Notes: generated by a model not told the origin, from the sequence alone. Positions 1,781 to 32,700 are shown, counted from the first letter of the stretch. The stretch: 64,000 nt of DNA from Patescibacteria group bacterium (GCA_043798935.1 JAZDOC010000017.1:64381-128380); one strand, 5' to 3'. Program-made: numbers and translations.

Positions 1781-4700
1781 ATGACACCTTATGAAGATGA
1801 TAAAATAAAATCAAAGCCTACGCGAATACATGACAGTACTACAAAAGATGGCACTGAAAGAAGGTTTGGCCAAGCTGAACCAGTTCGACCACCGCTTCCT
1901 GAAACATTGCGACCAACTGCAGCCGCAGCCGCAGAGACTCTTGAACATGCCGCCGCCATAGCTGATGGAGTGCCTAAGGATGCTGGCATGTTTGCAATAC
2001 CGGAGGATTTAACTGAAAGCGAAGACGTTGATGATGGCCTTCTCTTTGAGACAACGTTTTTGTCGCCGAACGAAGCGAGGCCACTACAAGCAGGGGTGGC
2101 ATCACAAAGGGAACGGGAAGACGAACCTGCGACAGATCCAAATATTGAAGAGAAAGTAAATGAATCAGAAGAGACACAAGCAGACGCAGAACAACCAGTG
2201 GCAGAAAGAGCCAGAGATGCCCGCCAAGCTATTGGAGATAAATTAATAAAAGTACTTTCATTATTAGAAGGTGATAATTTAAATTCAGTAATTAGCCAGA
2301 TAGAACAAAATAAACCCGATTTTTGGGCTGGCCTTCATGGCCGCGGGCGTGAGGTTAAAGATAAATTAAAAAGATTCGGTGGCGCCAAGCGGATGATTAA
2401 AAATATTATAAGGCGTTTATATGAAACTGTAATAGAGCCACGAAACGAACCAAGTACAGATGCACACTTAAGTGTGATTAATATCAATTTGTTCGACGAT
2501 CAATCTATTATTGCGTTTACTGAGAAAATAACACAATTAGAAGAAGCATTAAATAGCTTAATCACTTCACCAACAAACACAGCCGAAGGCGGCGAATCGA
2601 CAACGGAACAATCGTCTGCCCAAATACCAGCAACAGTGGATTATACAGAAGTAATAGCGAAAATTTTAGACAGTGCAGGAACAATTCATGAAGCAGAGGA
2701 TTTTATTAAAAGAGAGAAATTTTATCGAGAGCAAGCGTTTGTTTATTTATATGATGGCAGGCATGATTCGAGAACAGGAACATGCTTTCATTCCAGTTGT
2801 AATTTTCGTACTGATATTAATTATGATGTCCGTGTTAGGGACTGGCATAATGCTGCACAGAGGGAAAGCCAGCATTGGTGTCTCTTTTCAAATTATGAAC
2901 TGCAAGCCTCAGACAACTATGATTATCGGCTGGAAGCATTTAATTTAAATAAATTATTTGAAGTTTACGGCCATGAGAAAATACATGCTTTAGCAGAGAG
3001 GATTTTCGATAGATTTCATAATTCAGCTAAATATTTTCATGACGGCCAGGAAGCGGCTGATCCTTTTTTACGATCTCCAGGCTGGGTTTACAAAGAGCTG
3101 GTTAAACATTTTGGTGAACTACAAACAAGCAAAAAGGCTGATCCAGCAACAGCTAGGGCCGATGAGCTTCCTAGCATTGAAGAATTATTTTCCGAACAAG
3201 TGCAACAGCAAATGGTTGACCGCGCTTTAGGACAGGAAGTTTATAATAGTAGAACACATTATGGATTGGATGCTGATTTGAAGAAATTAGAAGGTCATGA
3301 AAATTATACAGCTATATCTGCGCAATTTCGAGAAGCTAATGATGGTCAAGATATTAGTGCTCATGGGGTGATATTACAAGAATTAGGAAAGCTGGTCGGT
3401 GAAGCGTCGCAAGAGGTTTATATCGGTAAGCAACTTCAGGGTTTAATAGATTTTTTGCAAGACGATTATAAATTAACACGCTTAGCCCAGGCAATTGAAA
3501 AAAAAGCTAAGGGTGGTTTTTTGGGTCGATTTAATAAAAATCAAGCTAGAATTCTAGAAACTATTAAAAAAGAGGGTGGCGCCATGATCATGCTGCGAAA
3601 TTTGAAAAAGAGCCTGCTTGAAGTGCAAGAGAAAATGAAACAGTTGAACAGAGCTGAAACTAATGATTTTGCCGGCAACATTGCTGAATTAAAAAAGGCT
3701 ATTGGTGCCATGGATGCTTCAGATACAGAAATTAAAAAAAGCTTGATAGTAGTGGTTGACAATCTAGAATATTTGCAAACGTTAAACGAGAAAACCAAGA
3801 AACAAAAAGCCTTAGCTGAATTGCCGCCGGACAATCATAAATATTCGATTTCTGAAAGCCGGCTCCCATCTTCAGATAAAAAACCACCTGCTTTTGCAGT
3901 AAAAATGAGGGATTCATTGGATAGAAACATTAAGTGTTATTATGGTGAGGGTGGCGATCGAGAGCAGATCGGTATAGATTTTACTAGTCGAGCTAAGCAA
4001 TTAATTAAACAGTATGAAAAAACACAACCTAAAATAAAAGAGAATAGAATTGCTTTTGTGCAGAAGCGGAAAGAAAAAGCAAGTGATTTATATGACGCAA
4101 CTTACACACAGTTATTAGAAGAAGAAAATTCTTTAATGAGGGCAATTGATGGTCATTTTGCAGATATTACTTTTCAAACCGGATTGTATCACGCCGATCA
4201 TATGGGTTTAGTGATGAAACAAATGGAAAACAGCCAGCGGCGTTTGCAGGAAGTGCATCGTAAATGGCAGGCATTAGCTAAATTCGATATTGAATCACCA
4301 GAACCAGAACCAGACCAAGAAACAGATGAAGTAAAAAAAAGAGAAAGATTCGAGTCGTTATTTAAGCAAACAGTCGCTTCTCCGCTGGAAGGTGATAATG
4401 AAGACAGAAGAGATGTGGCAGAGGAATTAAGACGTATTGTTGTTGTAAGTCGCGAGCAGGCAGCCTATATTGCGCGAGAGAAAGATAAAATTTATGAACA
4501 AGAAAAAGCTGGCCGCTTAACTAGAGGGCAAGCTAAAAAGGCTATAGATTCTTTGGATCGTTCTGTTTTTACAACCATAGATTTAGAAATAAGATATAAA
4601 GATGTTTTAGAACGCGCATATAGCCATTTGCCGGCTGAAAAACGAAAGTGTGCTGTAGAGGCTGAAATGGCTTACTTAAAAGGCGTGATTCAACAAACAA

Positions 4701-5128
4701 ACAGCGACGTTGAACAAGAAATAATGAGCCAAAGCAAGATGTACCGTGCGAAAAAGAAGTTAGGCATAATATCAGGCGAAGTAGCTTCAGGAGCATGGCG
4801 GCTAGCCAAAAAGCCGTTTGGTTTTGCAGACCGCGTCATTGATGCCGGGCTTGTATCAGGTGGTGTAAAAGCTTGGGGCGTTAAAGAAGCGATAAAAAGA
4901 TCAGGCGCAAAGTTCGAAGATTCGGCTAGAAAAATGTTGAGCGAACAAGGGCCTGTTGTACAAGAAAAAATAGGCAACGCTCTCATTAAAGCAATTGATA
5001 GATTAGCAGAATATTTAAAAAGAAAACCAGCTGAAAATATTGGCAATGAGGAAGGGGCTGAGACTGAGCCATCAACAGAATCAGAGCAACCCAAAAATGA
5101 AGGAGATAATAGTGAACCGCAAGCATAA
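1781..5128 (+). CDS. Large hypothetical protein of 1115 aa, predicted cytoplasmic and coiled-coil rich, with an acidic/Pro-Ala-rich N-terminal region.
   Basis: Uninterrupted 3.3 kb ORF. It has no Walker motifs, no TM segments and no recognisable catalytic signature. The first ~400 nt are locally GC-rich. Confidence 0.55.
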   Translation: MTPYEDDKIKSKPTRIHDSTTKDGTERRFGQAEPVRPPLPETLRPTAAAAAETLEHAAAIADGVPKDAGMFAIPEDLTESEDVDDGLLFETTFLSPNEARPLQAGVASQREREDEPATDPNIEEKVNESEETQADAEQPVAERARDARQAIGDKLIKVLSLLEGDNLNSVISQIEQNKPDFWAGLHGRGREVKDKLKRFGGAKRMIKNIIRRLYETVIEPRNEPSTDAHLSVININLFDDQSIIAFTEKITQLEEALNSLITSPTNTAEGGESTTEQSSAQIPATVDYTEVIAKILDSAGTIHEAEDFIKREKFYREQAFVYLYDGRHDSRTGTCFHSSCNFRTDINYDVRVRDWHNAAQRESQHWCLFSNYELQASDNYDYRLEAFNLNKLFEVYGHEKIHALAERIFDRFHNSAKYFHDGQEAADPFLRSPGWVYKELVKHFGELQTSKKADPATARADELPSIEELFSEQVQQQMVDRALGQEVYNSRTHYGLDADLKKLEGHENYTAISAQFREANDGQDISAHGVILQELGKLVGEASQEVYIGKQLQGLIDFLQDDYKLTRLAQAIEKKAKGGFLGRFNKNQARILETIKKEGGAMIMLRNLKKSLLEVQEKMKQLNRAETNDFAGNIAELKKAIGAMDASDTEIKKSLIVVVDNLEYLQTLNEKTKKQKALAELPPDNHKYSISESRLPSSDKKPPAFAVKMRDSLDRNIKCYYGEGGDREQIGIDFTSRAKQLIKQYEKTQPKIKENRIAFVQKRKEKASDLYDATYTQLLEEENSLMRAIDGHFADITFQTGLYHADHMGLVMKQMENSQRRLQEVHRKWQALAKFDIESPEPEPDQETDEVKKRERFESLFKQTVASPLEGDNEDRRDVAEELRRIVVVSREQAAYIAREKDKIYEQEKAGRLTRGQAKKAIDSLDRSVFTTIDLEIRYKDVLERAYSHLPAEKRKCAVEAEMAYLKGVIQQTNSDVEQEIMSQSKMYRAKKKLGIISGEVASGAWRLAKKPFGFADRVIDAGLVSGGVKAWGVKEAIKRSGAKFEDSARKMLSEQGPVVQEKIGNALIKAIDRLAEYLKRKPAENIGNEEGAETEPSTESEQPKNEGDNSEPQA

Positions 5129-5201
5129 TATGTTATGACCTGGCTTGCCCAGGTCAGAAAAGTGTAAGAGATATCTTGTCTCTACAGATGCATACAACCG
5201 T

Positions 5202-5230
5202 TTGACACAAAAACTAGCTTATGTTATATT
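5202..5230 (+). promoter_or_regulatory. Sigma70-like promoter TTGACA-N17-TATATT upstream of rpsO.
   Basis: TTGACA lies at 5202-5207, followed by a 17-nt spacer and TATATT at 5225-5230. It sits ~95 nt upstream of the rpsO start, with an AAGGAAA Shine-Dalgarno before the ATG. Confidence 0.5.
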
Positions 5231-5324
5231 AGCTTTGCTTTTTTAATTAATAAAATAACTTCCATGCCTTGGCTTAGGGCCATGAAGCACGCTAAGGACT
5301 CGGGTATGGAACAAAAGGAAAACT

Positions 5325-6362: not shown

Positions 6363-8528
6363 ATGAACCAACCAAAAAAATTCGAGCTCGAATGGGCTGG
6401 AAAAAAACTAATTATCGAAACCGGTCAATTAGCCGGTTTAGCGAACGGTTCTTGCAAAGTGCAATATGGCGACACTGTGGTGTTAGCCACGGCTTGCATG
6501 AGTGAAGAACCTCGCCCCGATGTCACTTATTTTCCATTACAAGTGGAATATAGGGAAAATTTATATGCGGCCGGTATTATTTCCGGTTCACGTTTTATAA
6601 AAAGAGAAGGTCGTCCATCCGACAAAGCCATCTTAACTTCGCGTATTATCGATCGATCAATCCGTCCTTTATTTGATGAAAAAGTAAGAAATGATATTCA
6701 AGTTGTTGTTTCTGTTTTATCGGCCGACGGAGAAAATGAGCCGGATGTGCCTGGTTTAATCGGTGCTGTTTGCGCATTGAATTTATCAGACATTCCATTT
6801 AACGATCCTTTAGCGGCTACAGCCATTGCTTTACAAGCTGATGGCCAGATGATTGTAAATCCAACTTTTAAAGAAAAAGAAAGCGCTAAAGCAAATTTTT
6901 TCATTTCCAATAATGGCGCCGATGTGGTAATGATTGAAACCGACGCCAAAGAAGCGCAAGAAGATGAAACATATAAGGCTATTGAATATGCGGTCGAAAA
7001 CACAAAACCGGTTTTAGAATTACTAAGCAAGATAAAAGCTGAAATTGGCAAACAAAAACGTGCTATTCAAGTGCAAGAATATGAACCCGAAGAAATTGCC
7101 AGAAGAGAAATGATCGATCAGAAAGTTCAAGCTTTTACCAAAGAAGCTTTTATTAGGTTTTATGGCATTACCGATAAACATGAACGCCGTCGCATGGAAA
7201 AGAAGCTAAAAGCCGAATTGAGATTGCAAATTCCCAAAGATGAAGAACCTCATGCTTTTGAACTGTTTGAAAAATTTATGGAAAAAGAATGTCGACGAGT
7301 AGTACTAGAAACCGGCAAACGCATTGACGGTCGCGATTTAGACGAAATTCGTCCGTTAAGCACAATCGTTGGCGTTTTGCCGCGAACTCATGGCAGTGCA
7401 GTTTTCGAGCGTGGCGAAACGCAAGTATTAAGCGTTGTCACATTAGGTTCTCCTGGTGATGAGCAAACTGTTGACGGCATGGAAGGCGAAGGCAAGAAAC
7501 GCTATATGCATCATTATAATTTTCCTGGTTTCAGCGTGGGTGAAACCTCTCCTTTTCGTGGCCCGGGTCGTCGTGAAATTGGTCATGGTGCTTTAGCTGA
7601 AAAAGCTTTAATTCCAGTATTGCCAACCAAGGATGAATTTCCTTATACTATTCGCGTCGTGAGCGAAGTTTTAGCCTCGAATGGTTCATCTTCTCAGGCA
7701 TCAGCTTGCGGTTCAACCATGGCTTTATTAGACGCTGGCGTACCGATTAAAAAATTAGTCGCCGGTATTGCTATTGGCTTGATTACCGATGACACCGACA
7801 GAAATATTTTTAAAGTTTTAACTGATATACAAGGCGTCGAAGATCATGCTGGTGATATGGATTTTAAAGTTGCCGGTACCAGAGATGGCGTTACAGCCGT
7901 GCAATTAGACATTAAACTAGGCGGAATCAGTTTAATAGTGGTAAAAGAGGCTTTACAAAAAGCAAAAGTTGCTCGCATGCAGATATTAGATGTTATGCAG
8001 GCAGTTTTAACCGAACCCAGAAAGGAATTATCGCCTTATGCGCCACGCATTAAACAAATTAAAATTAATCCCGACAAAATTCGCGATTTAATTGGCCCAG
8101 GTGGTAAAGTAATTAATGAAATTATTGATGCGACCGGTGTGGCCATAGATATTGAAGATGACGGAAGCGTATTTGTAACTTCGGTTTCAGCCGAAGGCAT
8201 GAAAGCCGCTTTAGAGCGCATTAATGGTATCACCAAAGATGTCGAAGTGGGTGAGATTTATGAAGGCGAAATTGTAAAAATCGTCCAAGACAGAAACACC
8301 GGAGCCGATATTGGTGCGATCGTGCAATTAACGGCCGGCCACGATGGCATGGTGCATATTTCCCAAATTGCTATGGAAAGAGTCAATAAAATTCAAGATT
8401 ATGTAAAATTAGGCGAAAAGATTAAAGTAAAAGTAATGAAAGTTGATAAAGAAAAAGGTCGAATAGAATTATCTCGTAAAGTTTTATTAAATCAAGCAGG
8501 CAGTTCCGAGTCAAAAAAAGATTTTTAA
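6363..8528 (+). CDS. pnp: Polynucleotide phosphorylase (polyribonucleotide nucleotidyltransferase).
   Basis: 721 aa. It has tandem RNase PH-like core domains (RIDGRDLDEIRPL, HGSAVFERGETQVL) plus C-terminal KH- and S1-like segments, and lies downstream of rpsO as in the conserved operon. Confidence 0.95.
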   Translation: MNQPKKFELEWAGKKLIIETGQLAGLANGSCKVQYGDTVVLATACMSEEPRPDVTYFPLQVEYRENLYAAGIISGSRFIKREGRPSDKAILTSRIIDRSIRPLFDEKVRNDIQVVVSVLSADGENEPDVPGLIGAVCALNLSDIPFNDPLAATAIALQADGQMIVNPTFKEKESAKANFFISNNGADVVMIETDAKEAQEDETYKAIEYAVENTKPVLELLSKIKAEIGKQKRAIQVQEYEPEEIARREMIDQKVQAFTKEAFIRFYGITDKHERRRMEKKLKAELRLQIPKDEEPHAFELFEKFMEKECRRVVLETGKRIDGRDLDEIRPLSTIVGVLPRTHGSAVFERGETQVLSVVTLGSPGDEQTVDGMEGEGKKRYMHHYNFPGFSVGETSPFRGPGRREIGHGALAEKALIPVLPTKDEFPYTIRVVSEVLASNGSSSQASACGSTMALLDAGVPIKKLVAGIAIGLITDDTDRNIFKVLTDIQGVEDHAGDMDFKVAGTRDGVTAVQLDIKLGGISLIVVKEALQKAKVARMQILDVMQAVLTEPRKELSPYAPRIKQIKINPDKIRDLIGPGGKVINEIIDATGVAIDIEDDGSVFVTSVSAEGMKAALERINGITKDVEVGEIYEGEIVKIVQDRNTGADIGAIVQLTAGHDGMVHISQIAMERVNKIQDYVKLGEKIKVKVMKVDKEKGRIELSRKVLLNQAGSSESKKDF

Positions 8529-8547: not shown

Positions 8548-9105
8548 ATGGGAAAATTATTTGTTATTACCGGGCCTTCTGGTGCCGGCAAAGATAGCGT
8601 TATTTATAAAGCTAAAGAATTAGGCTTAAATTTTTCTCAGGTGGTTACTACCAGCACTCGCGAAATAAGAAATGGCGAATCCGAAGGACACCCTTATTAT
8701 TTTATTACACGCGAGAATTTTCAAAAGAAAATCGACGGCAGCCAAATGATTGAATGGGCCGAGGTTTATGGCAACATGTATGGCAGCAGTAAGGAAGAAG
8801 TAGAAAGCAAAATGCAAAATGAGCCGGTTGTGGTAGTTAAAGTAGACCCACAAGGTGCCAGAACTTTCAAAAAAATGGTACCGGAATGCATTACTTTGTT
8901 TATTATGCCGCCTTCTTATGAGTATTTGGAAAAAAGGTTGATTAATCGTGAAACCGATACCAAAGAGGTTATTAAACAGCGCTTAGAAACAGCTCGTAAA
9001 GAATTGGAAAATCTGCTTGACTGGGATTATTTGGTAGTAAATGAAGAAGGAAAGTTAAAAGAAGCTGCTTTGGAAGTTAAAGAAATTGTTGAAAACAATA
9101 TTTAG
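8548..9105 (+). CDS. gmk: Guanylate kinase.
   Basis: 185 aa. It has the P-loop GPSGAGKDSV and the GMP-binding region TTSTREIRNGESEGHPYYFI. Confidence 0.9.
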   Translation: MGKLFVITGPSGAGKDSVIYKAKELGLNFSQVVTTSTREIRNGESEGHPYYFITRENFQKKIDGSQMIEWAEVYGNMYGSSKEEVESKMQNEPVVVVKVDPQGARTFKKMVPECITLFIMPPSYEYLEKRLINRETDTKEVIKQRLETARKELENLLDWDYLVVNEEGKLKEAALEVKEIVENNI

Positions 9106-9115
9106 ATTTTTTAGG

Positions 9116-9186
9116 CCCTGAATTTATTCAGGGTACTAGAAAATAATATGCACGGCCCCGAATTTATTCGGGGCTTATATTTTTTG
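9116..9186 (+). terminator. Tandem near-duplicate hairpins downstream of gmk; the second has a T-run, giving a rho-independent terminator.
   Basis: The first is ccctgaa-ttta-ttcaggg (9116-9133). The second is gccccgaa-ttta-ttcggggc (9155-9174) followed by ttatattttttg (9175-9186). Confidence 0.7.
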
Positions 9187-9212
9187 TGGATAACTTGTTC
9201 ACATGTGGATAA
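9185..9212 (-). promoter_or_regulatory. Two perfect DnaA boxes (TTATCCACA on the minus strand) in direct repeat.
   Basis: tgtggataa occurs at 9185-9193 and again at 9204-9212, 10 bp apart, immediately followed by a ~100 bp AT-rich tract. Confidence 0.5.
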
Positions 9213-9285
9213 GTTATAAATTATAATAATACATAGTTATTAACACATTTTTTGGCTAATGTAAGATAAATTTTATAACATATTA

Positions 9286-9314
9286 TTGACGTAGTGTCAT
9301 ATATCTGATATATT
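9286..9314 (+). promoter_or_regulatory. Sigma70-like promoter TTGACG-N17-TATATT.
   Basis: TTGACG lies at 9286-9291, followed by a 17-nt spacer and TATATT at 9309-9314. No protein ORF follows on this strand before the terminator at 9649-9682. Confidence 0.45.
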
Positions 9315-9321
9315 TAATATA

Positions 9322-9682
9322 GTACATTTACAAAAGGCAGTGGAGAGAGAAGTGGAGTTAAATAATTAAACACACTTTTTTCTCTGCTGTATGGTATATC
9401 CAGGAAAAAAACAAAAATAAAAACACCTCAACGCCAGCCCTCATTATATATTCTCTTACGAGAATCAGAGGGACAGCGGTATAGCAGAGTATCCCATCGC
9501 TGGGATGACCTATCACTCCTGGTAAATAGGCAGAAAGCACCTTAGTTTTTGAGCAGAAATTCTTTGCATCTTCCCCTCAGGGGAATGTACAAAGTCAGCT
9601 TAAAAGCTTGGGGGCGCACAGAACGTCCATTATCTCTTTCCTTAGTGAAGAGGGGGCGCTCATAGCGCCCCCTCTTTTTTTT
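9322..9682 (+). ncRNA. Candidate structured non-coding RNA of ~360 nt, family unknown, bounded by a promoter and a strong intrinsic terminator.
   Basis: There is no ORF of 60 aa or more on this strand. The local GC is higher than the flanks. Several perfect short hairpins are present: attctc-ttac-gagaat (9450-9465), atccca-tcgc-tgggat (9491-9506) and ttcccc-tca-ggggaa (9571-9585). The 3' end is a 12-bp GC-rich stem plus T8. Confidence 0.25.
9649..9682 (+). terminator. Strong rho-independent terminator.
   Basis: agagggggcgct (9649-9660) pairs with agcgccccctct across a cat loop, followed by tttttttt (9675-9682). Confidence 0.8.
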
Positions 9683-9731
9683 ATAAAAATTTTGCTATAA
9701 TAACTGTATAATAATTAATAATTATAAATTT

Positions 9732-10103
9732 ATGGACCAAAAAACATTAGACATTTTAAAAAAACAGCTACTGGCCGAAAAAGATAGCGTTATTGAAGAA
9801 TTAAGCTTAATATCAAAGCCGGATGCCGGGGATCATGTGGTTGGTGATTTTAATCCGCAAATGCCCGATTACGGCGATGATACCGGCGACGATCCGGAAA
9901 GTTCACCGGCTGAAGTGGAAGATTATCAATTAAATATTAATGCTACTTCAAAACTGGAAGCAAAATTAAACGATATCAATACGGTTTTGGAAAAAATAGA
10001 AAATAATGAATATGGAATTTGTGATGTTTGCGGTGGTAGCATTGCCGAAAATCGATTACAAGCCAACCCATCAGCATTAACCTGCGTAAAGTGCAGTGAA
10101 TAA
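9732..10103 (+). CDS. DksA/TraR-family C4 zinc-finger protein.
   Basis: 123 aa. The C-terminal motif CDVCGGSIAENRLQANPSALTCVKCSE is Cys-X2-Cys-X17-Cys-X2-Cys, and the N-terminus is acidic/coiled-coil as in the TraR/DksA family. Confidence 0.65.
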   Translation: MDQKTLDILKKQLLAEKDSVIEELSLISKPDAGDHVVGDFNPQMPDYGDDTGDDPESSPAEVEDYQLNINATSKLEAKLNDINTVLEKIENNEYGICDVCGGSIAENRLQANPSALTCVKCSE

Positions 10104-20771: not shown

Positions 20772-23700
20772 ATGCCAACTCTACTCAAACATAAAAAAAT
20801 AATTATCAGCTTATTATTAATTAGTACGGTTTTATTAAGTATATCCGGCATTTTTTATCCAAAAACTACTTATGCATTTCCAGCTGAAATCACTACTCAA
20901 GGTCCGGATTGGCAGATAAAAAATATTAAAGAAGTTATTTTAAAAAAGCTTCAAGACATTGGTTATGGTATGTACAGAAATGCCATGAATGCTTTTTTGG
21001 GCCGAGCTGCCTATGATTTAGCCACTGCTATTGCGACTGGAGGAACCGGGCAACAACCATTAATGTTTACGGAAACACCCGGTGCTTATGTTCGAGATTT
21101 AGCTGATGCAGCTGCCGGAGCCGCTATTGAAACTTTTGCCACTGACCTTGGTTTTGATGCGGCCGCTATATGCCACCCCACTAACCCAGAATTTAAAATT
21201 AAACTTGGTCTCGACTTGGAAGGATTGTTTGGTGGGGAAAGCTATTATAAACCGGTTTGTACTTTTTCCGAGTTTCAGGATAATTGGAATGATTTTTTTC
21301 AGGATCCAGAATTTGATAAATTTGTTTCAGCCCAATGGGATCCCAAAGTAAACCCGCTTGGGCAGGCACTTTCTGCAATTGATTATGTCCAAGCTCAATA
21401 CGATGACGCTACAAAACAAGCTGAACTTGAAAGATTAGTGAGTGGCAGTTTTAAAGACTTGAAAGATCTTGGAGGACACATTACTTCGCCTGGGTCGTTA
21501 ATAGAAAAGCAATGGGGAATTACTCAAGAAACTAGTTTTGAGGGTTTAAAATCTTTAGGTTCACCACTAGCCGATGCAGCTAATATTTTTTCAAATACTT
21601 TGTTTACTAAGTTATCTAAGCGAGTTCAGCAAGGCTTGGTTTCTATAACCAGCTTAAATTTATCCAGTTTAATAGCCGGCTCATCAGGCGGTACAACTTC
21701 AGGCATTAAGGCCGCGCAAGCTACTTACACTTCCTTTAATCAGCCTAATTTTGTGACTACCGGCAGCTATGATGTACTGGCAGATTTAGCGATTTGTCCT
21801 GAAGCCAGCGCAAGCACTTCTGAAAATTGCGTTATCGGTTCTACCATGCAAACCGCTATTGAAAATAAGTGGACTGTTAATGAATTCGTGGATTATTTAT
21901 CAGAAGTACAAGGAAATTCGGAATTTAGGTTTTCTCAAGATAATATTGGCAGTCCGGAAGAAGGCATTACTTATCGTGGAATATTAGTTTTGAAAAAATA
22001 TCGCATTGTTCCGGTTGGCTGGCAATTAGCCGCTGAATTTATTCGAAGCGAGAAAACAACTCAGGAGCCAACATTAAAACAATTAATGGATTGTTATGAT
22101 GCTTGCGGTGCTGAAGGGTCGCAAGGTGAGTGTCAATATATATTGGAAAACACTACTTATTCGCCGTTTTGTAAATTAGTTGATCCGTCTTGGGTATTAA
22201 AAGCACCGGAATATTATTGTGAACGTGAAGCACCGGGCTCGAGCATTGTGTATGATGAATTTTACGATACGGATGGCATGTCGCAAACTCAAGAAACCAG
22301 AACTATTGGTCGGGCTCAAGAATGTGTGGACGAACGTGGCTGTATTCAGGAACAAGTGGAAAATATTTGTACAGCTTATGGCTATTGTTCAGCTGAAAAA
22401 AGAATTTATCGTAGCGACGGCGACGTGTGCGATGCGGCTTATGCATCGTGCCAGTCTTTTGAAGTTAAAGAAGAAGGTGATGTGCTCGAAGGGCAAACTG
22501 TTTCTTATTTAAAATACGATTTAAATTACGGCGATTGCGCTACTGATCCGGGATGTAAATGGTATTGCTTGGCGCAAGATGCCGGGGGCTCTTATATATG
22601 TAAAGATCAAGACACTGTTTATAATGTTTGCGACAATTCTGACAGCACTTATTACACGGCTGAGAGTTGTACTTGCGAAACGCAAGAAAGTTGCTGGGTA
22701 AATGCCGGATCCGGTTCAGAAGATGATAGATACCGAACTTGCAGTTTAGGTTATTGTGCTGAAGACTCAACCATAAATTTAAAATCAGACTGCGATGCCA
22801 TTAGCGGCACGTGGGTAGGAAGCGGTGCCACTTGTAATTTAGGTGATAATTGCGGTGAAACAAGCCCGTATTATAGCCATACTAATGAGCAGTGTTATTG
22901 TTCGGTTCAAAATTCTTGCGACATCTATGTTGATACCGACGGCGATGGATACACTAGTGGTTCAACCAGTTCTTGTATATATACATACGATAGCGGTGAA
23001 GCAATTAATTGCTCGTTAAGCGCTGATTGTTCAGCCGATAATGAAACTTATTCATCACAGGGTTATTGTAAAGCCTATGATGCCGGGGATAATACTTGTA
23101 TTGTTCAATCCGGTGCAGGCAGTTGTATCAATGATTTAGGAAATACTTGTACTTTTGGGTATTGCGTTAACGATGATGGCGGATATGAAAGCGACGGCAT
23201 GTTAGATTGCGCTGATGATGGGTTTACTTGGCTTACAACAGCTTGCACTAGCGATATAGCCGATGTTCCTGATGCCAGCGGTATCAATAAATATTGTACT
23301 TGCAATTTAGGTGATGCTGATATCTGCGAGGTATCTGAAGGTGGCTATTCATGCACTACCGATAGTGGTACCAAACAAATATTAGGCACCGAAGAAGAAG
23401 CTGATATTGTTCCCGACGCACCGGATTTAGTTTATAATGTTTCAATTAATTTAGATCATAATGCAGCTGAATGCGATAGTGAAAATGCAGGCTGTAATTT
23501 ATATTATAGGGTTTTATCTGATACGAACCTACTATATAACGCAACTTTCCAGACAATTTATACGGCTGGTGGCGATGAAGTTGACGATGAGTTTGATAAT
23601 CAAGATCGTTTTGGTTTCTATGCTATTACCGGGCAAGGTTGTTTAATAGACGACGCTACCGCTGGTGGATGTATCGGTTGGCAGCAGCACGGAGTAAGCG

Positions 23701-26700
23701 CTTACGCCATTAGCGGTAATGGTGATACGTATAATCATCCAGACATCATAAATACTTATGGGCAATCCATAATATTACCGGCCGATACTACTGGCACTGG
23801 CTATATTTCCAACACCATTGATACCGGTTATGAGTTAGCTGATAGAACTTTCATTTTTGCATATAGTGGTGCCAGCGATTCTTCAGCCACGCCAAAATTT
23901 GCTGTTGGCTCGGCTGATGGTTCATACTCTATAACTATTCCCACTTCCATTTCCAGCGACGAAACAGCTGATTACGATTATTATAATGAAGACGGTTCGA
24001 TTATTTCTTATAGCACTACATATCAAGATTATTATTACACCTTTACTTTCCCGAATAGCGTTACCGATACTGCTATTACGGTTTATATTTATGCGTCGAC
24101 TGAAGCTGACGTTTCAATCGATGTAGCGCAATTAACTGAAGCTTCCTCATGGAACGGTAGTTATGCCGGTTATGGAGAAAATAATGCTACATATTTATAT
24201 GGGCAAAATGTTGAATGTGAAGCCGAAGATATCGGTTGTAAATTGTATACTCCGCTAGATCAAGATGATGCCACAGCTATTCCGGCGCAAATTACCAATC
24301 CTTATTCCACGGTTTGCGGATCAGGCAGTGATTTTTCAAACATTAATTGTAATCAATGTAATAACATCGATACTGAGCTTGGCCAAGAAGATTATTATGT
24401 GGGTTGTGATTTTTATCAGGAAATGCCGCTTACAAATAATTTCCCGGTTGCATCAGATCCAACCAGTTGGACGCTTTCTGACGTTACCGAGCGGTTAGCT
24501 GTAGCTCAGCGTACCGGTTATTATTGTGCCGATACCACTATTTCTTGTTTTCCTGGCGATCCAGACGGCTATTGCGCTTCACCGCTTGATTGTGTAAATA
24601 ATGTTTCCTTAATTCCAGATACTGGCTTGTCTTGTTCGGCCAGCGCGGTTGGTTGCGAGGAATATACCAACCTCGATACTGTATCTAGTGGTGGCGAAGG
24701 ATTAGAATATTATTCTTTCATTAAACAGTGTGTTAAAGATACCGACGATAATGCTTATACATTTCATACTTGGGAAGGCTCGGATACTGATGGCTATGCC
24801 ATGGTTCTTTATAATCTTAAAGCTTCTAACATTGAAGAAGATGGCAGTGTTTGTACAGACGGCATTTGCCCGCCTTGCACGCATTTAGATCCTGAAGTCG
24901 AAGATCCTAATGCCGAATGTCTAGACAGCACCGATCCAACTTCTTTATATTATGTTGAAGATTGTACAGCCGTATATGGCACAGATCCTGATTGTGTTAA
25001 ATTATATGATGATGAATTAAATACTTATTACCGTTATGCTTCTCAAACCGTTACTGTTTCCGCCGACTGCTTAGCACTTAGAAACACTTTAGATCAACGA
25101 GTTTATTATTCCATGTTAGATGAAAGCACGACTTGTTCGGCCGCTGATGCCGGGTGCCGAGAATATCAGGGTAGCGACAGCGGAGCAGTTGAACAGATTG
25201 TTAATGAAGTTTACGATGAAAATTCTACGGATAATTGGACTGGTGCAATTTCCACTTCCAATGAATCATTATTTACCGACGATTATTCACTTCGCTTAGA
25301 TAGCGGCACTCCCGATGACGATCCATCCTTAGACGCTACAACAGCTAATACCATTACTTACAATTTATATACAACCACTACTGGTTCAGACGGCGAAACT
25401 GTTTATTATTCCGATGTGGATGCGGGCGCTACTTATATTGCTACTTTCTGGGCCAAGGGTGATGGTGCCTTAAACATTAGTTTGAATGGTGCCAGTTTAT
25501 CCGATACTTATTACTTCACAGAAACTGGTTCAGAATTAGGAAGCGCAACATCTACTGATCGCGATATCGCAATTTCCGATAGCTGGACATATTATATTCT
25601 TGGCCCCATAAATTTGCCGGCTGGTGAAGATACCGACGACGCAGCTTTAGTACTAAATTATACTGGTAGCACTTCTAGTTCAGCCGGATACATCGATAAC
25701 GTAGTGATCGAGAAAAACAGCAGTCAATATTTAGTCAAAGGCAGTTTTGACTCTTGTTACGATTATGAAGGTTGCCGACGTTATCGTGATAATGATAGAG
25801 ACACAAATTATCTAAAATCATTCAAAAGGCTTTGCGAAGATTCAGCCGTGAATTGTGAAGCCATGTTTAACACTTCCAATTCTACCAACGAATTTACCGA
25901 AATTTTCTTAACCACTAATGAATATTCAACTGATGATGTAGTCGTGCCTTATGATCAAATTCAACCGGTAATTTATAATAGTGATGAAACTTGTTCATCG
26001 ACAAATAAGGGATGCACAGCCGTAGCACTTCCAGATATTAATGAACAAACCGGATTAATAAGCTCATTAGATACGGTTTATCGTGTATTAGACCCAGATA
26101 AATACAGCGTCAGTTTATGTGAAGACCCGCATTTACAATGCAAAGAATATTATTCTGACTATGATGGTACAGTATATTTTAAAGATCCAGGAGACAGAAC
26201 TTGTGATTATAAAACCTACACCAATTCCGATGGTGCCAGTGTTTATGGATGGTTTATAAAAGATTCTGAAGCCACCAGTCCGAATTGCCCGAAAATGTAT
26301 GAATACGACGATCCGTCTCAACCAATGGGTTCGGTTTGTAATAGCAATAGCTTAACTAAAACCGGCGATAAATGTAATAACGATTATGATTGCTACCCAG
26401 ATGGCTGGTACAGTGGCATGCCCACACCGCGTTGTATTTCTCGAGTTGAAGATGATATTGATCAAGATGCTGCCAATGGCTACAGTTTAGACAGAAACAA
26501 AAATTTCGGTTGGGTTGGAACTTGTGATGAACAAAATAGTGGTTGTAGTGAATATATTGATCCTAACAGTCCGAATATTGAAGAAGCTATAAGGAATAGT
26601 GGTTTTGAAAATAATGTTAAAAATAACGTGACTGGTATTTATTATACCGGCGGTGGAACCGAGGAAGATTTGCCGGATTATTGGACGCCGGTTGATAATG

Positions 26701-29700
26701 GTGAGCCGGATGAAGAAACCACAATTACTACTTCTACCATTACCCCAACTTCATATACCGTTTCAGCTTTATCATCTGTAATCGAGCGCACTATTTCAGC
26801 CAGTTCGCCATCTACCGGAACACCTCGAAGCGGTGGTGAATTACCGGGACGGGGTGAAATTGTTGGCCCATCTTCTACCAGCACTGATTACGATATTGTT
26901 TTTGTTATTGATAATAGTGCGGGCTTAGAATTTTATGATAATGACCTTGATGATGGTGATGGTTCTTATAGCGACTTCATGGATGAAGACGATGTTGGTT
27001 GCCTGCCCCAAGGTTATGGTGCTACTTGTGAGAGTTATTCAGACATGGAAACATATATTCAAAATTTAGCCGATACTGTAACTGGTTTTTCGAGTGAATT
27101 AGACTCTAACGGTTTGACATATAAAATGGCCGTGGTTAAAGCTAGTAATCCGAGTGATGACTGGAGACCAGAAGTAGTTCAAGACATGACGAGCAGTGTT
27201 TCTGATGTGGTTAATACCATTACAGATTTAGGAAATAATGTTAGCGGTCATGAGGAACATATTTATGAAGCACTGAATTATTCTCGAGGAACTTATGTTG
27301 AAAGTGGTTATAGATTTAGCATTAGTTATGACACAGGCGCTACCAGAATAGTAATACTTTTAACTGATGCATATCCAAGTAGCGATACTCCTTCTAGTTT
27401 AGGTGATAGTTATACTAATAGTCATGGAACAAGCGGTGTTTCTTGGGATAGTTTTGATGAACGTCCTTTAAAAGAGGATATTGGAACAGGCTATACTTTA
27501 TATGCAATAGTTTCAAGTAATGATAGAACAGTTGATTATGCTTCAACTTATTATAATCCTTCGGGTGAAGCCACAACAATACTATATACTGGCACTGTTT
27601 ATGCTAATGAACCGGCTTATGACGCAATCGCATCATATACGGGCGGAGCGATTTATGAAATAGATACGGCTGATTATAATACAATTTTTTCCAGTATTAC
27701 TGATAGTATAATGGCCGATCGGGACACTGATGGCGATGGCATAGATATCGATGACGATGCTTGTTCAACTGAAGACGCATCTAGTTGTGATATCGATAGT
27801 GATGGATGTCTTGATGATGAAGATGGTGATGGTGTAAGTGATTGCGTTGATGAATGTTTAGGTTCAGACGCCAGCGATTACGATACCGACAGCAATGGCT
27901 GTATCGACGACACCGACGATGATGGCATTTTAGATGATGCGGACACAGATATCGACGCCGACGGCATAGAGGAAAGAGATTTAGATGAAGATTGGAGCTC
28001 CACTACCGATGGCGCTGAAGGAACAGCCGAGTGCTTCCAGCGCGATGAAAATAGATTTAAAGACGGCACTAATAGTTTAATGATGACCGGCGATTGTGCC
28101 ATAGTGAGCGATTATGTACCAATCGAAAGAAACAAACTTTATACACTAGAAGCATATTTCAGTATTGAAGAATATGGTCAATATGAAGGCGAAGATGATG
28201 ATAAATACCAGGATGTAAGCATTGGTGCATATTTTGTTAAATATAATGAAGACAGAAACACTTGGGAATACGTGGAAGCAACTGATGCTCAAACATATTT
28301 TGTGGCTGATAATTTAACTGTCACCCCGACCGACTATGAACAATCTGATGATTTTTCAACCGATACATCTGACCAGGATCTTTATAGCAAATGGTTGAAA
28401 GTGTCTGGTAATATCGGCATAGGATCAGACGTAGAAATCCCTGAAGATGCGGAGTTTGTTAGAATATATCTGGAAGCTAAAAATCATGGTGATGTATTAT
28501 CGCCTTGGTTCGATAAAAATGTTTGGTTTGATAGTGTAAGCTTTAAAGAGAATGATAAATATTTCATGATCGACAGCACTGTTGACGGCACTGATGAAAG
28601 AGAAGCTACTGATGAGGTGCACACTTGTATTGATCAAGACACTGAAGAAGAGGCAGTCACTTCCGATGGTGGGTGCGTAGCATTTAGAGACGCATTAAAA
28701 GATTCACAGTATTATGTACAATTTGTGACCGATGGTACATGCAATAGTTGTTCTATTACCCCAAACAGTGATTCTTGTCGGGGCGTAATTGACGCTTGCG
28801 ATACTAATGCCATATTAAAAGTTCAGAAAGATCGTGTTTGCGATGAATGGGTGGCTTGCGAGACTGCAGAAATTATTGAAGATAGCAGTGGCAGTTCAAA
28901 ATATACCTGTTTCAGTTTACAGCCGTGTAATAAAATTAACGATGAAGGTAAATGTATTTCCTGGGTGCCAAAACCGGTTTATGAGGATTTGGATACCCAA
29001 ACTGATATAACTTATTATACTGCCGCCGGCGATACAGACCAACTATATGCCATGCAAAATTTAACCGGTTATGTTAAGGCCGGTTTAACCTGGAGCGATT
29101 ATAAAATGTGTAATGGTGGTATTAATGCTGGTAATTATTGCACTTCTAATGATGACTGCTTAGATGTTGGAACATGTGAAAGCGAAGTTATTGATTTACC
29201 GGACGAAGATGGAGGTTTGGGTATGGATATTATACAATTTGTCTGTCTCGGTGGTTCGAAAAACGGTGAAGATTGTGCCAGCTCTTCTGCCTTTGGTCTT
29301 AGTGGTGATGATTCGCTTTGCGAAGGCGACTGGGATGGCGCATGTAACTTACCACTAATCGTTGAAGGTTATTATCCTTACGGTTGGATGTATGAAGCCG
29401 GAGAAGCCGGGTCTGAATACGGCGTTGAACTTATAGAATATAATAATTTTGAAAATTTATATTGTGCTGGCAATAAAATTAAAAATAGGATTCCTTGTAT
29501 AAGTAACAGCTATGAATCTGAAATCGGTAGTCATTGTTGGTCGGCTAATTTAGAAGTATATCAGAGCGACGAAGATCCTAATAATGATCCAGTTGAAGGA
29601 ACTTCAGGTGAAGATAATAAGTCAGCAGATTATTATTGTGCTAATTCAACTGAATGGAGTGAATTCCCTTTCAGCCAGCCGGCTGAATATACCGAAACCG

Positions 29701-32700
29701 GATGGTCTGGTTATATTGGTAATGAAAAAGTACAAGTGAAACAATATGATAATCAATATGGTGATAATGAGAGTATAGACATTAATAATGTGCTTAAAGC
29801 ATCGGGCGCCATGACTTCTGCTGGCGAAAACATCGGGTTAAAATATGATTTAAGCACAAATATTCAAAATAATGGATATTATGCCTTGTCTTTTAAAGGT
29901 CTTTATACTAGCAATTATTATAACGCCAATTCTGACAAACCAAGTTCAATTAGCGTGGGTTTGCGACATAATAACATAGTCACCGACGGCACTGATACTG
30001 AAACGCAAAATATTGATTGGTTTATTCAGGGTGCGGGCATGGCCGATGTGGTGTTTGTAATCGACAGTTCAAGTTCAATGAGCGGTTATATGGCTGGTGT
30101 AAAAACTGCGGCTACTGATTTAGCATCTCAGCTTCAAGCAGTCGGCATTGGCGCTAAATTTGCCATTGTTGATATGGACTATTTATCTTCATCATTATCT
30201 GGTCCTTATGAAAGGGGACAGGAATACAACAATGTTAATACATTAGATCTTGATTTAACAGATAATTTAAGCACATTTGGTAATTATATAGATACTTACA
30301 TTCAAGCAGCGCAAGCCCAAGTTGATCCTTTTGCTGCTGTTCAACAAGTAATAAACAACGATTTAACTTTAGTAGATCCTCTTGGCCCGCTTGATAGTTC
30401 AGAAATATCATACCGCGACGCATCGGAAAAAATAATTATTGTAGTTACTGATACTTATGATGAATATGTGGAGTATGATAGTCGCGATACCTCAAGTTAT
30501 GCTGGTGCTTATGATTTAGAAAACAATATTCCTTATGATGGTTATTATGCCGACTTCTTAAATAGTTCCGGATTTACCGTTTATACTATCACTACGCCAA
30601 CCATGTATAATTATGGCGATTATAATGATCTAGCTTCTTATTCTGGCGGTGCAGTTTATGATACGCTTTCTACTACAACGGCCAACTGGACTGCTACAAT
30701 TCTAGACATTTCTGATCGCATTATTGCCAATGCTGATGTATTCCAATTTTCGCAGAGCTTAGATAGCTTCGCTTTCGGACCAATTAAAGTAGTTGAAAAA
30801 AATCCTTGCACTGATAGCGATTGCGACCCGGTTGAAAATGTAGCTTCAGGTGAACTCGTCACATCAGACTTAATCTTTGTTAGCAATGACGGTATGTCGT
30901 TTGAAATTGACGACGTTTTTTTACTACCGGTGCTTGAAGTAAATAAAAATTTAAACCCGATTAGCCGATCTTGCCGAGCCTACGCTAAAGATGGAGATAA
31001 AGAGTGTGTTTATACTGAACCAAATGGCGTACAGCACAAAGGTTGGAGAGGATATTGTCTTGAAGCTGACCCGGAAAATAGTAGCCGTTGTATTACTTGG
31101 TGGCCGCTTGATGTAATTGCGGGCGAATCTACCATGTACACGCGTGAACGTGGCGGGTATAGTGGTCGATCCAATGTTTATATGTGTTTAGCCGCTAAAG
31201 GTTATGAACGCCCTGGTTTTTGTAGTGGCACTGATGTTGAGGGAAATGATTATGATAATTTAGCTCCTGGCGATGGTGTATTATGCCAACCAGGAAGTTG
31301 GGATGATACAATGGGTCGAAGTAACACATGTGGTGCTGGTGGTTTAAGCAGATGTTTTTATGGCGCTGAAGATGTAATTTCTGAAGAGTATAGCCGTGAT
31401 GGAGGTTTTGTATGTGATGTTTTATTAGCCGCAATGATTTTTGAGTGCGGAGAGAGTTATTTAATAACTGGCGGTTTAACAATTTCGGCTAATCCTTTAT
31501 GTACAGCGGCAATTACAGCTTATTCTCTAGAGTGTTTAGCCGGCTCTGGAGGAGATAATATAGACAATACTTATACAGAAAAATTTATTCATGATCCCGG
31601 TATCTGCCAAGTACAAGATGATGATGATTTACAAACAGATTGTGGAGCATACCCTTCAGAAAATACCTGGGTATGTTCTACCGATACTATTACCAATCAA
31701 GATGAGTGTGAAGAAAGCGGTGCAACATGGAGCTTGGCAAATATTAATGTCTTCGACAGTAATATAACTTATACTGGCAAATGTATTTATTATAATAATT
31801 ATGAGGACTATGGAGATGATCAAGATTTATCTGCCACACATACTTATTGTTTTTATGATGGAAATGAAGACGGTATTACTGAAATTAGAAGCACCTTTGA
31901 TTGTAATAGCGACAGTGTATGTCAAATTAGCCCTACTGTTACTGGCAAGCAGTGCGCACCCATGCAATGTGTGGGCACGAATTCTACACCATGCAGTCCG
32001 GCTTCCTGTGATGACCGATATGGTGCGTTGGTATTAAAGGGTTTACAAGCAGTTGCTAATACTCTTGATCCGTCAGGTTATACTGCTCAAGTACTTCCCG
32101 GTCTATTAACACATAATTGTGAACCAGAAGAAGCTTGCGGACAGCCGACCACTTTGCATAATAATACTAACAATTACGGTTTAGTGACTCGCAGTTGGCA
32201 GATGTATGATCCGTATCATATAAATTTAAGTGAGAAAAACTATGGTGTTATTTCCAAATTAGAAGCTAATGTGGCCGAAAAAAATATTAATATTAGTGAA
32301 ATCGAAAGTATCGATATTTTCTTGGGTGATGCCGGTAAAGGTAGCGGTGGTGATGAAGAAGCATTATTCTGGGGGCAAGGCGGTAGCGATAGTGATGGAC
32401 CTTTTAAGGATGACAATGGCACTATTACAATTACTGATTTAGCGGCGGGTTCAATTCCCGAAGAAGGCGCTGATGGTAGTAGCGACGGCCCGTGGTCGCA
32501 TTGTATGGGTGTTGACCAAGGTTCAATTGAAGGTGCAGGTTGTTGGTGGTGGGGTCAGTACGATAGCCGTGGAAAAGCCGATAAAGTTGGCGTTTATACC
32601 TCTGATGGAAATCCGATTAACGACGACAGTACTTATGATTTAGTATATGTCTGGGGTTGGAGTGATTTCATGAAGCATGATAGTGGCTGTAATGGTACCG

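Follow-up and report, generated by a model that had tools for sequence, protein, structure and literature searches.

A candidate large pseudoknotted non-coding RNA gene between gmk and dksA in Kerfeldbacteria-type Patescibacteria

OLE, the raiA motif, ROOL and GOLLD are bacterial RNAs of several hundred nucleotides (nt), each restricted to particular lineages, which have many covarying helices, pseudoknots and promoters of their own, and whose functions are not deducible from sequence. To our knowledge, large structured bacterial RNAs without a known function are rare, and each one resolved so far has brought unexpected biology, such as ribonucleoprotein membrane complexes, RNA cages and guide RNAs. 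We know of almost nothing concerning the RNA biology of the Patescibacteria, which have genomes of about 1 Mb and have shed most dispensable sequence. Here we describe a candidate RNA gene from an uncultured, ultra-small Patescibacteria/Kerfeldbacteria bacterium, contained in a 64,000-nt stretch of DNA (GCA_043798935.1, JAZDOC010000017.1:64381-128380), which we call the window. The element occupies the gap between gmk and a dksA/traR-type gene, where a first-pass annotation, made from the sequence alone, had proposed a novel structured non-coding RNA (ncRNA) at positions 9286-9682.

In our preferred reading, to which we give a probability of roughly 0.7, positions 9321-9682 of the + strand are a stand-alone gene for a stable, structured ncRNA of an uncatalogued family, which would act in trans as a scaffold in an RNA-protein complex. 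The RNA resembles OLE, raiA, ROOL and GOLLD in being lineage-restricted and in possessing covarying helices, a pseudoknot, its own promoter and invariant unpaired nucleotides. It differs from them in matching none of their Rfam models and in its phylum, the Patescibacteria; its neighbours are pnp, gmk, dksA/traR and lspA, whereas OLE is typically accompanied by its partner gene oapA and ROOL and GOLLD lie in prophage and tRNA surroundings.

Relatives of the element were collected by several routes. A scan of a genome collection for gmk returned 12 loci with Gmk proteins of 69-81% identity, belonging to Kerfeldbacteria and other 'Patescibacteria group' metagenome-assembled genomes (MAGs), and 11 distant loci, mostly from Moranbacteria. 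With nhmmer, the RNA region was found 3' of gmk in the close set only; the distant, Moranbacteria-type loci have a different synteny and gave no nhmmer match. A motif scan of metagenome contigs, filtered with nhmmer, supplied at least six more distinct copies (L047, L052, L056, L060, L122 and L136; L065 duplicates L008), and a route through the dksA-type protein (NCBI MAG protein P0001) supplied one more, L147. Homologues on genome and metagenome contigs have nhmmer E-values of 1e-104 to 1e-38, and the family totals at least 18 distinct sequences of 368-433 nt, the window included. In the loci reached through DksA, gene callers annotate nothing in the RNA gap. Gene order is kept as pnp-gmk-[RNA]-(small open reading frame)-dksA-lspA-RNHCP-comM, with the RNA always between gmk and the dksA-type gene; the window contains a single copy. 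In L008 an insertion parts gmk from the RNA and leaves the linkage of RNA and dksA intact; it is there, between gmk and the RNA gene, that an open reading frame (ORF) of 597 codons with a signal-peptide-like N-terminus lies (3254-5050 in locus coordinates). The sequences fall into two clades that differ at their ends and share a common core: clade 1 consists of the window, L001-L004, L136 and L147, and clade 2 of the other 11 of 18 sequences. Among the matches listed, and as far as sampled, the family appears to be confined to Kerfeldbacteria-type Patescibacteria. The records of L004, L006, L007, L009, L011, L012, L015, L018, L020 and L022 are titled 'uncultured Gammaproteobacteria' or 'Bdellovibrionales' despite a Patescibacteria-type pnp-gmk-dksA region, and these titles are probably taxonomic mislabels.

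The fold of the RNA is conserved by compensatory evolution. The + strand folds with -124.8 kcal/mol (z = -5.9 against dinucleotide shuffles); because the - strand also scores (z = -5.1), the strand was assigned from the promoter, the terminator and the G-U pairs, which are frequent in conserved helices and fit the + strand only. Of the 96 pairs that RNAalifold found in clade 2, 51 show compensatory changes, as do 20 of the 62 found in clade 1; the helices of the domain designated k were recovered with compensatory changes in both clades. Helix tables were also drawn up for 17 sequences, with the register set by invariant sequence anchors alone and without fitting. Each of 11 consecutive positions of helix c (0 to +10) forms a canonical pair in 14-17 of the 17 sequences, position +6 being GC in eight, CG in six, GU in two and AU in one. 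Under the same anchored register, position +2 of helix h1 is CG in 14 sequences and GC in three, while helix h2 has CG (9) or UA (8) at +1 and UA (8) or CG (8) at +3. The 3x3 internal loop of this domain reads CAG/GCA in nine sequences, CAG/ACA in seven and GAG/ACA in one (n=17). Stem g covaries likewise, for example as UACC/GGUA and GCUUAA/UUAGGC. A core alignment (A6) was built by hand and padded with N, its columns being left unchanged by MAFFT; plain MAFFT, on the full RNA or on the core, mis-registered several rows. In this alignment 94.5% of cells are paired, compared with 77.4% when shuffled, 18 of 33 pairs change on both sides, and the covariation score is 0.525, compared with 0.211 for shuffles and 0.05-0.11 for slid partners. 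Hairpin f shows double changes at three of its five pairs with 95% of cells paired.

In pseudoknot d, a junction strand pairs with the loop of hairpin f; the two are complementary in each of the sequences, although the letters themselves change in nearly every lineage. The window has CCAGGA/UCCUGG, and elsewhere the same duplex is made from CCUAGGC/GCCUAGG, CCAGACA/UGUCUGG, CUGGACA/UGUCCAG, AUCGGGU/ACCCGAU, GGGCUA/UAGCCC or CAAGGC/GCCUUG. Double changes occur at all seven of its pairs in the core alignment, a count that is biased for this helix because its columns were placed via the best duplex. The unbiased evidence is an alignment-free permutation test, in which strands from the same molecule form a mean of 6.25 Watson-Crick base pairs (bp) and mismatched species pairs 3.73, and in which none of 20000 permutations reached the observed total. 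This test was run on the true loop sequences, wide windows having given many spurious cross-species duplexes.

About ten helices are kept across the copies with many compensatory changes (Table 1). Helix c, a long-range helix of 11 bp, encloses a junction that bears an invariant A-rich loop and the stem with the 3x3 loop; hairpin f lies outside helix c and is followed by domain k and by a G/C-rich 3' domain. All three hairpins picked out in the first-pass annotation are present in this scheme, as hairpin i and the apical hairpins of domains h and k. The unpaired or basal elements that are kept invariant are the A-rich loop, whose columns do not vary in alignments A1, A2 and A6, the CAG/RCA loop, the GAAAU junction of domain k, and the UCUCUG/RGAG base of helix c. 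The UCUCUG motif is complementary both to an upstream purine-rich strand, at the base of hairpin Pa, and to the downstream CAGAG of helix c; 16 of 17 sequences have, 36-65 nt upstream, a stretch that can form 7-10 bp with (U)UUUCUCUG. Pa and helix c therefore compete for the same six nucleotides, and this competition may represent a switch, an intermediate in folding or a junction of three strands. At the 3' end, the G-run GGGGGCGC (9610-9617) copies the 5' strand of the terminator; its homologue in clade 2 is the 5' strand of helix e, which closes the RNA there. The conserved box at or near the 5' end has no consistent pairing partner across lineages, its best site shifting and often coinciding with the k1 3' strand just before the G-run; this box often reads CUUUGACA, and in several lineages it is complementary to that same strand.

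Table 1. Positions of the features of the RNA locus. Coordinates are those of the window except where a locus is named; sequences inside the RNA are read on the + strand.
Feature	Position	Strand	Details
Two perfect DnaA boxes	9185-9193, 9204-9212	+	TGTGGATAA; ~75-100 bp upstream of the -35 hexamer
Promoter	9286-9314	+	-35 TTGACG, 17-nt spacer ending in TG (extended -10), -10 TATATT; kept in homologous loci
Conserved 5' box	9321-9331	+	AGUACAUUUAC, consensus GNNCWUUDAMA; at or near the RNA 5' end
Hairpin Pa	9336-9389	+	purine-rich GGCAGUGGAGAGAGAAGUG (9336-9354) with CACACUUUUUUCUCUGCUG (9371-9389); variable tip; base overlaps helix c 5' strand
Helix c, 5' strand	9382-9392	+	CUCUGCUGUAU; family-invariant UCUCUG; pairs with 9479-9489
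Pseudoknot d, 5' strand	9400-9405	+	CCAGGA; junction strand immediately 5' of the A-rich loop; partner 9517-9522 (hairpin f loop)
A-rich single-stranded loop	9405-9425	+	AAAAAAACAAAAAUAAAAACA; family core AAAAYAAAAAUAAAA, 15-20 nt; closed by short variable stem g
Domain h	9431-9479	+	h1 CGC/GCG (9432-9434/9476-9478); 3x3 loop CAG (9435-9437)/ACA (9473-9475)
Domain h, upper part		+	h2 CCCUC/GAGGG (9438-9442/9468-9472); AU-rich asymmetric loop; apical hairpin UUCUC-UUAC-GAGAA (9451-9464)
Helix c, 3' strand	9479-9489	+	GUAUAGCAGAG; conserved RGAG
Hairpin i	9491-9506	+	AUCCCA-UCGC-UGGGAU; in all lineages with differing sequences; compensatory pairs (RNAalifold)
Hairpin f	9509-9530	+	CCUAU...AUAGG; loop bears pseudoknot d 3' strand UCCUGG (9517-9522)
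Domain k	9544-9608	+	k1 AGUUUUUGAGC (9544-9554)/GCUUAAAAGCU (9598-9608); conserved junction GAAAU (9556-9560)
Domain k, inner part		+	k2 CUUUG/CAAAG; apical hairpin k3 UUCCCC-UCA-GGGGAA within 9570-9587
3' region	9610-9652	+	G-run GGGGGCGC (9610-9617); hairpin n CUCUUU...GAAGAG (9634-9652)
Intrinsic terminator	9647-9682	+	14-bp GC-rich stem GAAGAGGGGGCGC/GCGCCCCCUCUUU (9647-9677), 3-nt loop, T8; -27.0 kcal/mol predicted
Extended -10 promoter of the downstream dksA/traR-type gene, outside the RNA	9693-9701	+	TGCTATAAT, read from the sequence
Clade-2 small ORF	L005 3159-3338; L007 1237-1416; L009 2014-2184; L011 ~5154-5315		

The near-consensus promoter of the first-pass annotation, TTGACG-N17-TATATT, is indeed present, and is strong and of the sigma-70 type. 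In the surrounding 2-kb region 10 promoter-like sites occur and 9.1 are expected from shuffles, so that the match in the window is by itself not above chance in AT-rich DNA, but TTGAC-N16-18-TAYAMT, usually with the extended -10 TG, stands at the same position in all 17 homologous loci that have upstream DNA. A second promoter inside the 5' box was considered, since CUUUGACA resembles a -35 hexamer, and was set aside as a suitably spaced -10 element accompanies it in only one homologue. The terminator had been described as a 12-bp GC stem followed by T8; the T8 and the great strength of the stem stand, while the stem in fact has 14 pairs at 9647-9677. All seven clade-1 copies end in a compact GC hairpin with a T-rich tract, the full T-run being found in five and a short and interrupted one in L002 and L136. 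The proposed boundaries are essentially right, with a predicted transcript of about 9321-9682 (+).

The position of the RNA also suggests a different explanation, in which it would be a cis-acting leader, a giant riboswitch or attenuator, of the dksA/traR-lspA-RNHCP-comM genes, with a ligand or protein refolding it to set the 3' G/C helix or the terminator. It is always directly upstream of these same genes and co-oriented with them, even where it is parted from gmk. Alternative pairings of the kind that such control requires are present: UCUCUG has two partners, and in the window the 3' strand of the terminator, GCGCCCCC, can pair with the adjacent GGGGGCGC or with the upstream copy at 9610-9617. 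Clade-2 copies, furthermore, end in a long helix, GGGGUGUCC...GGACACCCC, with no U-tract, and an ORF begins 8-60 nt downstream. In the clade of the window, however, a very strong, seemingly constitutive terminator (14 bp, -27 kcal/mol, T8) is followed by an extended -10 promoter ahead of dksA, from which we conclude that the dksA gene has a promoter of its own. TGnTATAAT occupies the same interval in L001-L004, as does TGCTATACT in L060. At 370-430 nt and about ten helices, the RNA is also far above any known riboswitch aptamer with its platform, it matches no Rfam riboswitch or leader model, and its best-conserved elements, the A-rich and CAG/RCA loops, are far from the 3' end. A cis-acting leader is weakened by the clade-1 terminator and separate promoter, remains compatible with clade 2, and is in our estimation unlikely for the family. 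In L060 TGCTATACT lies just 9 nt before the dksA ATG, which suggests a leaderless dksA mRNA. Clade 2 alone has a conserved ORF of 53-82 codons between the RNA and dksA, with the motif DAGAEARAxDIIDALVExKAWQD; as a universal partner protein of the RNA it is discounted, being absent from the window and from clade 1.

Protein coding offers no better account of the segment. Its longest + strand ORF has 38 codons and runs into the terminator, in agreement with the first-pass annotation, which had reported no plus-strand ORF of 60 codons or more; that annotation had named a conserved small protein on the minus strand as a possible refutation, and the one 60-codon - strand ORF (9358-9540) is not conserved. 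A small protein on either strand could draw on these two ORFs and on ORFs of 50-115 codons in some homologues, but the longest ORFs vary in strand, position and length between homologues, and no ORF is conserved by position, frame or strand among them; the ORFs resemble each other solely along stretches of conserved nucleotides. Linkers and indels differ in length by amounts not divisible by three, and the substitutions preserve base pairing instead of being synonymous. We give a coding function next to no credence.

The RNA belongs to no catalogued family that we could find. Searched with the 4227 covariance models of Rfam 15 at gathering thresholds, the whole window gave no match at the RNA and only three tRNAs elsewhere; at E<=10 with lax filters, positions 9100-9760 gave only terminator-driven noise from small RNA and leader models, at about half the gathering score or less, and no match to models of RNase P, transfer-messenger RNA (tmRNA), signal recognition particle (SRP) RNA, 6S RNA, riboswitches or introns. 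Five homologous loci searched at E<=1 gave nothing relevant, and L009 and L047 at E<=10 gave only chance miRNA and snoRNA matches. ARAGORN found no tmRNA in the window, and full-text literature searches found no description of such an RNA. These searches agree with the first-pass annotation, which could not match the segment by eye to consensus elements of RNase P, tmRNA, SRP or 6S RNAs, and, together with its conservation in relatives and the compensatory changes in its structure, support its standing as a novel structured ncRNA candidate.

An extremely divergent tmRNA, RNase P RNA, SRP RNA or 6S RNA, missed by standard models, nevertheless deserves consideration. The length of the RNA, its strong promoter, single copy, vertical inheritance and housekeeping neighbours resemble those of rnpB and ssrA, and none of the four was detected in the rest of the 64-kb window, which is only weakly informative. 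The likeness to tmRNA extends to its pseudoknot content and long A-rich single strand. There is, however, no tRNA-like domain (by ARAGORN or the tmRNA models), no acceptor or T-arm and no T-loop-like hairpin visible at the 3' end, where the G/C helix lacks a G-U at the third pair and no CCA follows; frames and stop positions after the A-rich loop vary among homologues, with linkers differing by non-multiples of three, and a tag reading GCC AGC... after the A-rich stretch was rejected for want of a conserved frame. It shares with RNase P RNA a similar length, a core of several helices enclosed by a long-range helix, and a pseudoknot between loop and junction that recalls P6, but it has none of the universally conserved P4 or J-region sequences: no P4 strands GGAAAGUC/ACAGAA were seen, no model matched three divergent members at E<=10, and ACAGAAC at 9619-9625 of the window, which might be read as a P4 strand, is not conserved in homologues. 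Helix 8 of SRP RNA carries, from its tip, a GNAR-type tetraloop, a symmetric loop and a 5'-heavy asymmetric loop. The CAG 5'/GCA 3' symmetric loop of domain h, set between short G/C stems of 3-4 bp, resembles the Ffh-binding symmetric loop, but no SRP model matches, the order of symmetric and asymmetric loops is reversed, the UUCG-type tip is at least 10 nt away where a GNAR tetraloop would be expected three base pairs above the symmetric loop, and the molecule is multi-domain and pseudoknotted rather than a rod. 6S RNA is a rod of ~180-200 nt whose large central bubble imitates an open promoter; here no 6S model matches, and the consensus fold is again a pseudoknotted, multi-domain one. With every defining feature tested failing, descent from one of these RNAs seems very unlikely; if it were nonetheless true, the family would measure how far universal RNAs can drift.

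The complex pseudoknotted fold and its invariant unpaired nucleotides would also suit a self-processing or catalytic RNA, which would be a new class of ribozyme, or an RNA derived from a domesticated mobile element, and some large orphan RNAs have later proved catalytic or element-associated. Against this, the RNA occurs once, keeps strict synteny and is inherited vertically, and its neighbourhood contains no transposase, reverse transcriptase, nuclease or repeat; models of group I and II introns, HEARO and ribozymes gave no match, and no host gene is interrupted. We consider such an origin highly improbable.

At the level of sequence, then, the locus presents the features of an independent functional RNA gene, namely a promoter, a terminator, no conserved ORF and covariation, and what it encodes is a real RNA gene, predicted to be independently transcribed, of a family new to Rfam. 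The RNA is large and elaborately folded, has invariant loops and a strong promoter, and is inherited strictly vertically although the genome is reduced, all of which leads us to favour a structural RNA acting in trans. It would serve as a folded scaffold, most probably as part of an RNA-protein complex, in which the pseudoknot could fix the geometry of the A-rich and CAG/RCA loops for recognition of a protein or a U-rich nucleic acid; the choice that UCUCUG has between Pa and helix c could mean that the RNA passes through, or switches between, two conformations. Because 370-430 nt have been kept in reduced genomes, with a consensus promoter and with compensatory mutation across the lineage, the RNA is very likely important to the cell.

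Several points weigh against this interpretation. The sample comprises 18 distinct sequences from one lineage, and the transcript, its ends and its abundance are predictions only. The clade-2 copies, 11 of the 18, close with a long G/C helix and lack a U-tract, and the small ORF or dksA begins 8-60 nt later, so that read-through and a role in cis may be possible there. The pseudoknot columns of the core alignment carry the bias described above, and the 5' box, a GCAC box and the 3' G-run are without resolved pairing partners across the 18 sequences. The scaffold mechanism itself is argued from how the RNA is built and from its likeness to large RNAs already known in bacteria.

Upstream of the promoter, the two DnaA boxes are the only perfect matches to TTATCCACA within the 64-kb window. 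DnaA-box-like 9-mers recur in 17 of 17 loci (L001-L012, L047, L052, L056, L122 and L136), 77-154 nt ahead of the start of the RNA, at a density of 11.4 per kb at that site against 0.39 per kb elsewhere, an enrichment of about 30-fold. A replication origin at these boxes is improbable, as a GC-skew switch is absent and the genes are co-oriented; the arrangement looks like regulation or DnaA titration instead, and DnaA, through the conserved upstream boxes, might tune transcription of the RNA gene. In homologous loci the interval from the DnaA boxes to the -35 hexamer contains a palindrome, GGCTAA-N3-5-TTAGCC, ~20-60 nt upstream of the RNA promoter (L001 ~4626-4650, L011 ~4638-4660), which is degenerate in the window (~9253-9268). 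A T-run follows it in many loci; it may be an operator or the gmk terminator, the latter being the simpler reading.

A broader proposal, which we hold only tentatively, is that the RNA represents the first of a new class of large, pseudoknotted RNAs with housekeeping roles in bacteria of the candidate phyla radiation, forming an RNA-protein machine or possibly a ribozyme with a core function that is indispensable to these reduced genomes, perhaps coupled to the cell cycle through transcription under DnaA control, and using its invariant A-rich loop to recognise a substrate or partner. For RNA biologists and for those who study Patescibacteria, the locus offers a testable object with predicted ends, a pseudoknotted structure model, invariant candidate contact sites and a possible link to DnaA.

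In the annotation of the window, pnp (6363-8528) and gmk (8548-9105) precede a gap of 626 bp without genes, beyond which a gene for a 123-residue DksA/TraR-type zinc-finger protein (9732-10103), lspA, an RNHCP-domain gene and a comM/yifB-type gene follow, all on the + strand. The GC content at 9400-9699 is 0.435-0.44. The earlier remark that it exceeds the surroundings holds for the intergenic DNA just upstream (0.25-0.28) but not for the adjoining coding DNA, which is similar. Immediately 3' of gmk are tandem, near-identical hairpins, at 9112-9131 (GGCCCTGAATTTATTCAGGG) and 9154-9175 (GGCCCCGAATTTATTCGGGGC), with a T-rich tract after the second; they look like a duplicated terminator. Further along the window an ORF of 4542 codons (20772-34400, +), followed on the same strand by ORFs of 915 and 623 codons, represents a giant protein gene in a very small genome.

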